A stretch of DNA of 25,404 nucleotides from the NCBI GenBank assembly GCA_048885925.1, contig JBHLLG010000038.1:1-25404 (forward strand). Reading direction: 5' to 3'. A model generated the notes under the pieces. It saw only the letters and a program-made list of their open reading frames with translations, ran no database searches and was not told where the DNA came from. The stretch comes from Candidatus Hermodarchaeota archaeon (GTDB lineage: Archaea; Asgardarchaeota; Lokiarchaeia; Sigyniarchaeales; SOKP01). Each line of letters starts with the position of its first letter. Position 1 is the first letter of the stretch. A program made the position numbers and the translations under genes. Of the stretch, positions 10,535 to 11,407 are shown piece after piece.

Positions 10535-11407
10535 ATGCCACAAGGAGTGTTTTTATTAATACATGATGAGATAAGGGGACCAGAAATCAAATGTTCTTTT
10601 TATAAAAATCCAGTAAATCTAAGTAAAGAATTCATTTCAAAATTATACATGTCTCATGCTGGATTTGACTCTTCATCTCATATAGAAATTAAGTTTGAGA
10701 ATTATCGTAGTGTTTCATGTTTCACTGGTAATCTTGATCGAAGAACTCAAAAAGAGGGTATACTAGGTATTGTATTTGAAGAGGATGAGGAATTTGATAA
10801 TTTAGACTTATTTTTGCAGCGCAATTTATATAATGCTATAGATAATCCGAGTAATGAAACAATGCAAGACATATTTTCAAATAAACTTCTTAATTATCTT
10901 AAATTAAATGATCTTTTTCAAAAGGTAGAATTTGAAGGCATTCCAGAACTTTATTTAATAAACGGAAACAGTAATTACAAGTATAATCTATTAAAGATTG
11001 GTGAATCAAGTATTTCAATTAAAGAAATGGCCGATTTGTATCTAAAAATGATGAAAGAGCAAGTAATTCCTGATTATCACTATGAAAAGTTAAATTTAGG
11101 CGGAGTAAATAATACCTTTTTAGTTCTAAAAAGTAATGAGTCAATTAAAACTGTTAAAAAGTTAATCACAACTTTAAAATCTTATCTTGAAAAGTTTTAT
11201 TCTTACTCATTAGAAATTTTAGCCTTATTGCTCCTTCCGTCAATGATAAAAATAGTCCCACTAAAAACAGAATATTCAAAAAAATATTATGATAAAACTA
11301 AATCATTTCTCCAAAGTCTGCAGAAATCGGAAAATTATCAAAAAGAATTTAACGCTATAATCTCAAACTTAATTGAAGGAAATATTTATATATCTCCTAT
11401 ATTGTAA
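10535..11407 (+). CDS. Protein with N-terminal uDENN/longin-like domain (NPRL2/folliculin-type N-terminus); C-terminal part unassigned
   Basis: N-terminus GVFLLIHDEIRGPEI resembles the beta1-[FH]xxxxGP-beta2 start of uDENN/longin domains. It continues with a helix (SKEFISKLYMSH), three strands (HIEIKF, RSVSCFT, GILGIVFE) and further helices. GAGGT RBS; 16 bp after the GTPase stop. Confidence 0.65.
   Translation: MPQGVFLLIHDEIRGPEIKCSFYKNPVNLSKEFISKLYMSHAGFDSSSHIEIKFENYRSVSCFTGNLDRRTQKEGILGIVFEEDEEFDNLDLFLQRNLYNAIDNPSNETMQDIFSNKLLNYLKLNDLFQKVEFEGIPELYLINGNSNYKYNLLKIGESSISIKEMADLYLKMMKEQVIPDYHYEKLNLGGVNNTFLVLKSNESIKTVKKLITTLKSYLEKFYSYSLEILALLLLPSMIKIVPLKTEYSKKYYDKTKSFLQSLQKSENYQKEFNAIISNLIEGNIYISPIL

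Follow-up and report, generated by a model that had tools for sequence, protein, structure and literature searches.

NPRL2 (Npr2), a subunit of GATOR1/SEACIT, is the GTPase-activating protein (GAP) for RagA/Gtr1 and provides Arg78 as its arginine finger. According to the accessible text of PMC12290439, the longins SMCR8, C9orf72, FLCN and NPRL2, which act in GAPs, carry a specific 'GP motif', which sits where the second β-strand begins or in the loop leading into it and adjoins the arginine finger. The same text describes the motif as absent from non-GAP longins, for example TRAPP, adaptins and DENND, and reports motif and finger together in a set of Asgard longins. The available portions of two further papers describe Asgard Rag GTPases fused to longins, many NPRL2-like longins, and a family of NPRL2-like organization in most Thor and a few Loki metagenome-assembled genomes (MAGs) (Liu et al., bioRxiv 10.1101/2020.10.19.343400), as well as longin-GTPase-roadblock (L-G-R) architectures (Tran et al. 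2024, PMC10933270). Longin-Rag fusions, NPRL2-like families and Asgard longins that combine the GP motif with the arginine (GP/Arg) have all been published before. Here we analyse a 25,404-nucleotide stretch of DNA from Candidatus Hermodarchaeota archaeon (assembly GCA_048885925.1, contig JBHLLG010000038.1, positions 1 to 25,404), referred to below as the window, in which the gene for a longin protein of 290 residues directly follows that of a Rag/Gtr1-like GTPase.

The longin gene occupies positions 10535-11407 of the forward strand and begins 16 nucleotides past the Rag stop codon. A preliminary description, made from the letters of this stretch alone, had proposed that its product carries arginines at the finger position of NPRL2 and FLCN and acts as a GAP for the adjacent GTPase. 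The 85 residues quoted there for 10535-10790 are identical to the actual translation and form the N-terminal part of the 290-residue open reading frame (ORF); codons 69 and 70 (10739-10744) both encode arginine. A word-indexed search returned 205 homologues at E≤1e-3, every one of them archaeal by name, and close relatives of the window proteins, all from MAGs, are labelled Promethearchaeota (Loki-type), Thor-, Hermod-, Hod- and Odinarchaeota. The G+C content of the window is low, and three RNA runs contained next to none of the sequence words looked for. Judged from its modelled structure and its setting, the 290-residue protein may be an NPRL2-like regulator of the RagA-like GTPase encoded just upstream, acting on it as an arginine-finger GAP, a proposal that we regard as evenly poised.

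An AlphaFold2 model of the longin protein, calculated from 31 homologues (predicted local distance difference test (pLDDT) 80.3, predicted template-modelling score 0.77), divides it into three parts. Residues 1-129 (10535-10921) form a longin domain with strands at 2-11 and 15-23, a helix at 31-41, strands at 51-54, 57-64 and 75-81, and helices at 91-103 and 107-129. The longin fold anticipated for the N-terminal region is thus predicted, both by this β-β-α-β-β-β-α-α topology and by similarity to solved longins, and R69 and R70 lie where they had been placed, in the loop of residues 65-74 that joins strands four (57-64) and five (75-81). Residues 135-237 (10937-11245) make up a second, roadblock/longin-like α/β domain of the order β-β-α-β-β-α-α. 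A C-terminal α/β element (residues 238-290, 11246-11404), which structural matches barely reach, completes the chain.

When the model was compared with solved structures, the top match was the longin domain of a Lokiarchaeota Roadblock-Longin protein (8yqg_B, Z 11.1, 126 residues aligned, root-mean-square deviation (rmsd) 3.4). A GATOR1 chain (Z 10.2), the longin domain of Lst4 (Z 10.1, 116 residues aligned, rmsd 3.0) and the VAMP7 longin (Z 9.8) matched as well. The second domain was matched by AP-2 sigma (6owt_S, Z 9.3), MglB (6hjm_K, Z 8.4) and LAMTOR (5y39_B, Z 7.7). In a second comparison 999 Foldseek candidates were re-aligned. Among the best 50, only GATOR1/SEAC chains, nine in number, aligned along the whole model (1..289 or 1..290), over 162-174 residues and at Z 9.1-10.7: 9o5a_H (Z 10.7, 171 residues aligned), 7t3b_B and 9o5d_D (10.3 each), 9v0j_A (10.1), 9h4q_T, 7t3a_B and 8adl_S (9.8 each), 6ces_N (9.7) and 8fw5_C (9.1). 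These alignments cover about residues 6..238 or 6..327 of the human GATOR1 chains and 10..308 of the two SEAC chains. Their rmsd of 7.0-8.1 Å indicates that the domains are differently arranged.

The second strand of the longin domain starts with H10-D11-x3-G15-P16 (10562-10582), which is invariant in our alignment A1. The position of G15-P16, at the start of strand 15-23, agrees with the published GP-motif definition of longin GAPs (PMC12290439). For motif counts we used the 131 complete members among 139 sequences that match a profile of the N-terminal domain, leaving out eight partial ones. Both G15-P16 and R69, our candidate arginine finger, are kept in 127 of the 131, which for R69 is beyond chance. 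Position 70 is arginine in 105 members, lysine in nine and variable in the rest. Of the arginine pair noted earlier, only R69 is conserved across the family; at position 70 close orthologues have R or K, whereas distant ones vary. All four members without R69 (P0124, P0127, P0130, P0141) also lack P16. On a 17-row maximum-likelihood tree these four require four changes, of which well-supported branches force at least two; three of the four have a sister that bears GP/Arg. The joint and repeated loss of P16 and R69 suggests that the hairpin and the loop constitute one functional site. Paralogues share the pattern MPxG...WDxxxGP, with WD where the studied protein has HD.

The neighbouring GTPase (399 residues, 9319-10518, forward strand) consists of an N-terminal domain of ~100 residues, a G domain and a C-terminal roadblock domain. 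Pfam identifies Gtr1_RagA (PF04670, E 7.8e-42, residues 104-307) and Robl_LC7 (PF03259, E 7.3e-8, residues 282-368). The G domain contains the P-loop GLSNAGKT (9643-9666), DLGGQ (9787-9801) and HKMD (9985-9996). WDLGGQ is invariant in 25 of 25 orthologues, which bears out the earlier observation that the catalytic switch-II Gln is retained; the P-loop and HKxD are likewise invariant in this set. Yeast Gtr1 and human RagA give the best sequence matches in the PDB (E 3e-24 to 1e-20), with alignments that extend into the roadblock domain; RagC/Gtr2 follow at about 1e-17. In its own genome the GTPase is the best of 26 Gtr1_RagA matches, at 145 bits versus at most 94 for the others. Scoring nearer to Gtr1/RagA, on which NPRL2 acts, than to RagC/Gtr2, and keeping DLGGQ, it fits the GAP reading. 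The N-terminal domain (residues 1-100, 9319-9618) is conserved, with P5-G6-T7, Y27, E34 and N61-R62 among its invariant residues. The idea that it represents a degenerate longin was considered and rejected (hhalign probability 0.25%, no real hmmsearch match). Elsewhere in the genome, a 492-residue ORF (G000:C7:438-1343, L029) has a Gtr1_RagA match (E 1.1e-25) and, just upstream of it, a weak match to Pfam Folliculin that stays below cut-off (17.5 bits); it is probably a longin-GTPase fusion.

How stable is the association of the two genes? We compared 28 loci from species-representative genomes by tblastn with the window proteins. In 27 of them the longin gene is immediately preceded by a Rag orthologue, the exception being L002. 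The spacers measure about 16-25 nucleotides, and the longin proteins are 53-92% identical across the loci. Further full-length copies, belonging to other families, have a Rag gene upstream in five of seven cases. One genome (G139) encodes four full-length paralogues (L094-L097), three of which carry GP/Arg and are each preceded by a Rag gene of their own. The remaining copy, L095, has neither GP/Arg nor a Rag gene, and a leucine-rich-repeat protein is encoded nearby. A profile search of the phylum gave matches in 78 of 399 genomes; about 45 of the matches are full-length, mostly in the window's own family, and the others are to the N-terminal domain alone, set in other architectures. Twenty loci with such N-domain-only paralogues were compared. 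In five (L079, L082, L083, L089, L090) the longin is fused N-terminally to a Rag-like GTPase-roadblock protein, giving a chain of 433-454 residues, and most of these fused longins have an arginine (D-K-x-R-V) in the β4-β5 loop, with lysine in L090. Two belong to family f21, discussed below, and lie directly after a Rag-like gene, and one has a 176-residue small-GTPase ORF directly upstream of the longin gene. The remaining paralogue loci show no GTPase gene beside the longin within the stretch compared, with small-GTPase-like ORFs at a distance in L087 and L091.

The longin fold, the conserved motifs, the linkage of the genes and the paralogue fusions were obtained directly; from them we infer a binding geometry and a GAP reaction of the following kind. 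The longin face made of the β1-β2 hairpin (H10-D11...G15-P16) and the β4-β5 loop would dock on the GTP-bound G domain. R69 would be inserted as an arginine finger, and catalysis would be completed with the GTPase's own switch-II Gln161. Hydrolysis of GTP would then switch the GTPase off. Of the original proposal of a GAP for the neighbour, the longin fold and the conserved loop arginine stand, the latter together with a GP motif, as does the linkage to Rag genes, through operon and paralogue fusion; R70 has to be given up. A complex predicted from GTPase, longin, GTP and Mg scored 0.42, compared with 0.00 for the best of three controls, and was graded as weak support; at least 90% of contacts are common to the runs, and the partner pLDDT is at least 81. 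Of 80 solved complexes 58 attained the pass mark, as did 2 of 110 mismatched pairs; at scores of 0.60 or below it was attained by only 7 of the 80 solved complexes and by both mismatches.

The protein resembles NPRL2 in having an N-terminal longin followed by a further α/β domain, in its GP motif and conserved arginine in a longin loop, and in its putative partner, a RagA/Gtr1-like GTPase with a roadblock tail. Unlike NPRL2, to which Pfam and PDB profile searches detect no sequence similarity, it is only 290 residues long and aligns to chain residues ~6-238 only, leaving the C-terminal part of NPRL2 without a counterpart. Moreover, its gene shares an operon with those of the GTPase and a surface protein, and no NPRL3-like or DEPDC5-like partner is seen in the locus. 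It shares the GP motif and the arginine, in the same arrangement, with the Asgard 'FLCN/SMCR8-type' longins of PMC12290439 and the Asgard NPRL2-like families of Liu et al., as far as the accessible text of both describes them. Whereas both, in that text, leave the partner GTPase open, as 'either, or possibly both' of ArfR and Rag/Gtr, here the neighbour is a Rag gene.

The Arf GAP C9orf72-SMCR8 (CSW) offers another comparison, since the WDxxxGP spacing of the paralogues equals that of C9orf72 W33-D34...G38-P39 in the accessible text of PMC12290439; the studied protein has HDxxxGP. In CSW, however, the GTPase is held by C9orf72, with its WD...GP, and the other subunit supplies the finger, whereas here both features reside on one chain that has no DENN domain. 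The Asgard L-G-R Rag-like GTPases, as presented in the available part of Tran et al. 2024 (PMC10933270), combine the same longin family with the same kind of GTPase, and the fused forms match our N-domain profile. In contrast to these, the longin of the window is a separate gene product with two extra domains, and its GTPase has a different N-terminal domain of ~100 residues. The roadblock folds in the second domain and in a 349-residue neighbour recall the MglA-MglB and Ragulator platforms, from which the present system differs by its longin and GP/Arg pocket. MglB acts as a GAP in the form of a roadblock homodimer and is not known to use an arginine finger. No description of this operon was found in the literature searched, although supplementary lists, which possibly name the family, lay outside the search. 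What appears to be new is the conserved operon.

Could the longin serve the GTPase in a way other than catalysis? The main alternative is that the Rag-like GTPase has in this protein a non-catalytic platform of longin/roadblock type, a guanine nucleotide exchange factor (GEF) or scaffold such as Ragulator, TRAPP or Mon1-Ccz1, and that R69 and the GP hairpin contribute to binding or to the stability of the fold rather than to catalysis. We consider this possible, if on the unlikely side. Longin and roadblock dimers act 'mainly as GEFs' in the wording of the accessible text of PMC10933270, and the second domain of our protein is similar to the MglB and LAMTOR roadblocks. When the whole model was submitted to Foldseek, subunits of tri-longin Rab GEFs ranked first: Mon1-Ccz1 (8jbe_C, E 9.5e-4, TM 0.24) gave the only match at E≤1e-3, CPLANE and BLOC-3 were likewise among the top matches, and TM did not exceed 0.28. 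On structural re-alignment, however, tri-longin GEF chains cover just one domain of the model, at Z 6.9-8.0, whereas the GATOR1/SEAC chains follow its whole length. The tri-longin Rab GEFs (Mon1-Ccz1, Fuzzy-Inturned, HPS1-HPS4) have three consecutive longins, the first of which forms the GEF site; the model comprises two longin/roadblock-like domains and a small C-terminal element. The reported absence of the GP motif from TRAPP, adaptins and DENND also speaks against a platform of this type, and the repeated co-loss of P16 and R69 suits one functional pocket better than general fold stability.

The non-catalytic platform draws further support from one distant lineage, family f21 (L074, L075, L101, L102, L104; genomes G117-G122). 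Its proteins of 324-342 residues carry this longin N-domain but read F-D-x3-G-V for H/W-D-x3-G-P, and their β4-β5 loop has lysine or lacks arginine. A 352-387-residue Rag-like gene is nevertheless found directly upstream in five of the five loci whose upstream side is on the contig. Because f21 keeps the Rag-longin pair without GP/Arg, the pairing is independent of the proposed finger, and the f21 pair may be a non-catalytic version of it.

Besides f21, several observations weigh against an arginine-finger GAP. Two GP/Arg-bearing copies, L002 and L098, have no adjacent Rag gene. In PMC12290439 and PMC8534245 the known longin GAPs each combine two different longin subunits; in the conserved module we found no other longin gene, and the downstream neighbour has a roadblock domain instead. 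Longin platforms are more often GEFs, according to the available portions of PMC10933270 and PMC8534245. The equivalence of R69 with NPRL2 R78, FLCN R164 and SMCR8 R147 is approximate, as it derives from alignment ranges at an rmsd of 7-8 Å: model residues 1..289 aligned with chain residues 6..238 put chain residue 78 near model residue ~73, in the same loop, as an estimate only. The β4-β5 loop is itself modelled with moderate confidence (pLDDT 63-76). The whole-length GATOR1/SEAC chains are presumably NPRL2/Npr2 and NPRL3, going by their modelled lengths (321-405) and chain names. The complex prediction, finally, returned a score without an interface or contact list.

Sequence searches for a link to known GAP longins point in the same direction. 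Pfam contains no family that matches the longin protein at E≤1, its NPR2 and Folliculin families match none of 19 relatives at E≤10, and ten paralogous longins showed no link to known Pfam families. In profile searches of the window's own genome the longin gene was matched by neither PF11704 (Folliculin) nor PF06218 (NPR2). PF11704 gave a single weak match (17.5 bits, below cut-off) in another ORF, and also matched 8 of 14 control genomes; PF06218 found nothing in this genome and nothing above cut-off in the 399 genomes of the phylum. Two family profiles retrieved no relevant chain from the PDB sequences at E 10, and phmmer together with the two profiles returned only centrins and designed proteins at E>0.1. 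The family is narrow: a profile search of 1.84 billion cluster representatives yielded 35 at E≤1e-3, all of them family members or fragments, save one 382-residue protein with seven short matching stretches that we take to be spurious. On the supporting side, and as a lead only, the language-model neighbourhood of residues 1-132 contains an archaeal cluster with Pfam NPR2 in 19% of its members (score 0.92, 179 shared features).

A different role is suggested by the gene that precedes the Rag-longin pair. It encodes a giant surface protein of 2131 residues (2902-9297, forward strand) with an N-terminal hydrophobic segment and, by Pfam, three DUF2341 + Laminin_G_3 units and Ig-like repeats. A hydropathy scan places a transmembrane helix from about residue 1878 (nucleotide ~8533) and a cytoplasmic helical tail of ~224 residues at nucleotides ~8623-9294. 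The longin might be an adaptor linking this tail to the GTPase, perhaps an effector that senses which nucleotide is bound and leaves the nucleotide cycle unaffected. The giant gene is found upstream of the Rag gene in 24 of the 28 loci, the four other contigs ending before it, and the two copies without an adjacent Rag gene follow directly on a tail. In L002 (1-961) the end of the giant gene, that is its tail, runs straight into the longin gene. In L098 (557-2359) the longin gene comes after a free-standing 290-residue homologue of the tail (29% identity over 264 columns, E 2.9e-24). An adaptor would, however, leave both the GP/Arg pocket with its co-loss and the fusion of paralogous longins to GTPases without such a tail unexplained, and we judge it improbable. 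The 290-residue tail homologue of L098 also has a weak MIT-like Pfam match.

That the adjacency is incidental and the protein serves another small GTPase of the genome, or an unrelated process, could be argued from the 26 Gtr1_RagA-type matches of the genome, from the weak complex score and from the statement, in the accessible text of Tran et al. (PMC10933270), that MK-D1 GTPase genes generally lie outside operons with longin or roadblock genes, but is very improbable in view of the tight spacing kept in 27 of 28 loci despite the divergence of the longins, and of the independent longin-GTPase fusions among the paralogues.

On its other side the longin gene converges with that of a 349-residue protein (11980-13029, reverse strand; AlphaFold2 model with pLDDT 67.7). 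This protein is composed of a coiled-coil hairpin (12733-13023), a β-rich domain with Cys-x2-Cys...Cys-x-His (12445-12624) and a C-terminal roadblock domain (11995-12348). In structural comparison of the model, its residues 228-345 resemble a bacterial Roadblock/LC7 protein (3leq_A, Z 11.6), MP1-p14 (Z 11.5), an MK-D1 Roadblock (Z 11.3) and a Ragulator subunit chain (8fw5_G, Z 11.1). The gene lies just downstream of the longin gene in 27 of the 28 loci, on the opposite strand in 26 and on the same strand in L006; in L021 it is cut by the contig end. Its alignment (A5) retains 22 of 25 rows, with L028 left out as well as L010 and L025, which have a stop codon in the stretch. The orthologues at L010:5861-6883 and L025:5858-6505 (reverse strand) contain one in-frame stop each.

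In the window, the two convergent genes are separated by a spacer of ~570 base pairs (11408-11979) that is absent from related loci. It contains an ORF of 89 residues (11729-11998, forward strand), a partial duplicate that resembles the C-terminal ~60 residues of the longin protein. The ORF matches positions 226-287 of the longin profile (E 2.4e-8), and by tblastn it finds the 3' ends of orthologous longin genes. Since the longin and 349-residue protein genes nearly abut in related loci, the window appears to have received an insertion of ~570 base pairs with a partial gene duplicate. Beside the module lie the genes for a response regulator (13199-13927) and a PAS histidine kinase (14079-16448), both on the reverse strand. 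The response regulator was considered as a module member and rejected: with a tblastn match in none of the 28 related loci, it is probably outside the module. Upstream of the giant gene, a large forward-strand ORF of 825 residues, open at its 5' end (1-2478), has a weak Ig-like (Big_7) match and may encode another surface protein.

Gene order suggests a receptor, a switch, a regulator and a scaffold. Since the tail of the giant LamG-type surface protein is encoded immediately ahead of the GTPase in this module, the switch probably reports on or controls this membrane protein. Carried further, the four genes would make up a complete outside-in Rag signalling unit of LamG receptor, RagA-like GTPase, NPRL2-like arginine-finger GAP and coiled-coil roadblock scaffold in the role of Ragulator, a one-operon forerunner of Rag-Ragulator-GATOR1 at the cell surface instead of the lysosome. 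We find this fuller picture attractive but doubtful.

Which archaeal GTPases do GP/Arg longins act on? To this question, asked in PMC12290439, the locus offers a concrete and testable answer: a small pair of RagA-like GTPase and NPRL2-like longin, kept together in many Lokiarchaeial-type genomes, for which natural 'dead' variants lacking both motifs can be used as controls. Should GAP activity be absent, the result would caution against taking GP/Arg motifs in Asgard longins as GAP signatures. If, on the other hand, arginine-dependent GAP activity were found, the Rag-GATOR1-type switch would predate eukaryotes and lysosomes, and its mechanism would become accessible with two soluble archaeal proteins in place of large eukaryotic complexes. 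The pair thus provides a testable archaeal forerunner of the human Rag and Arf off-switches.

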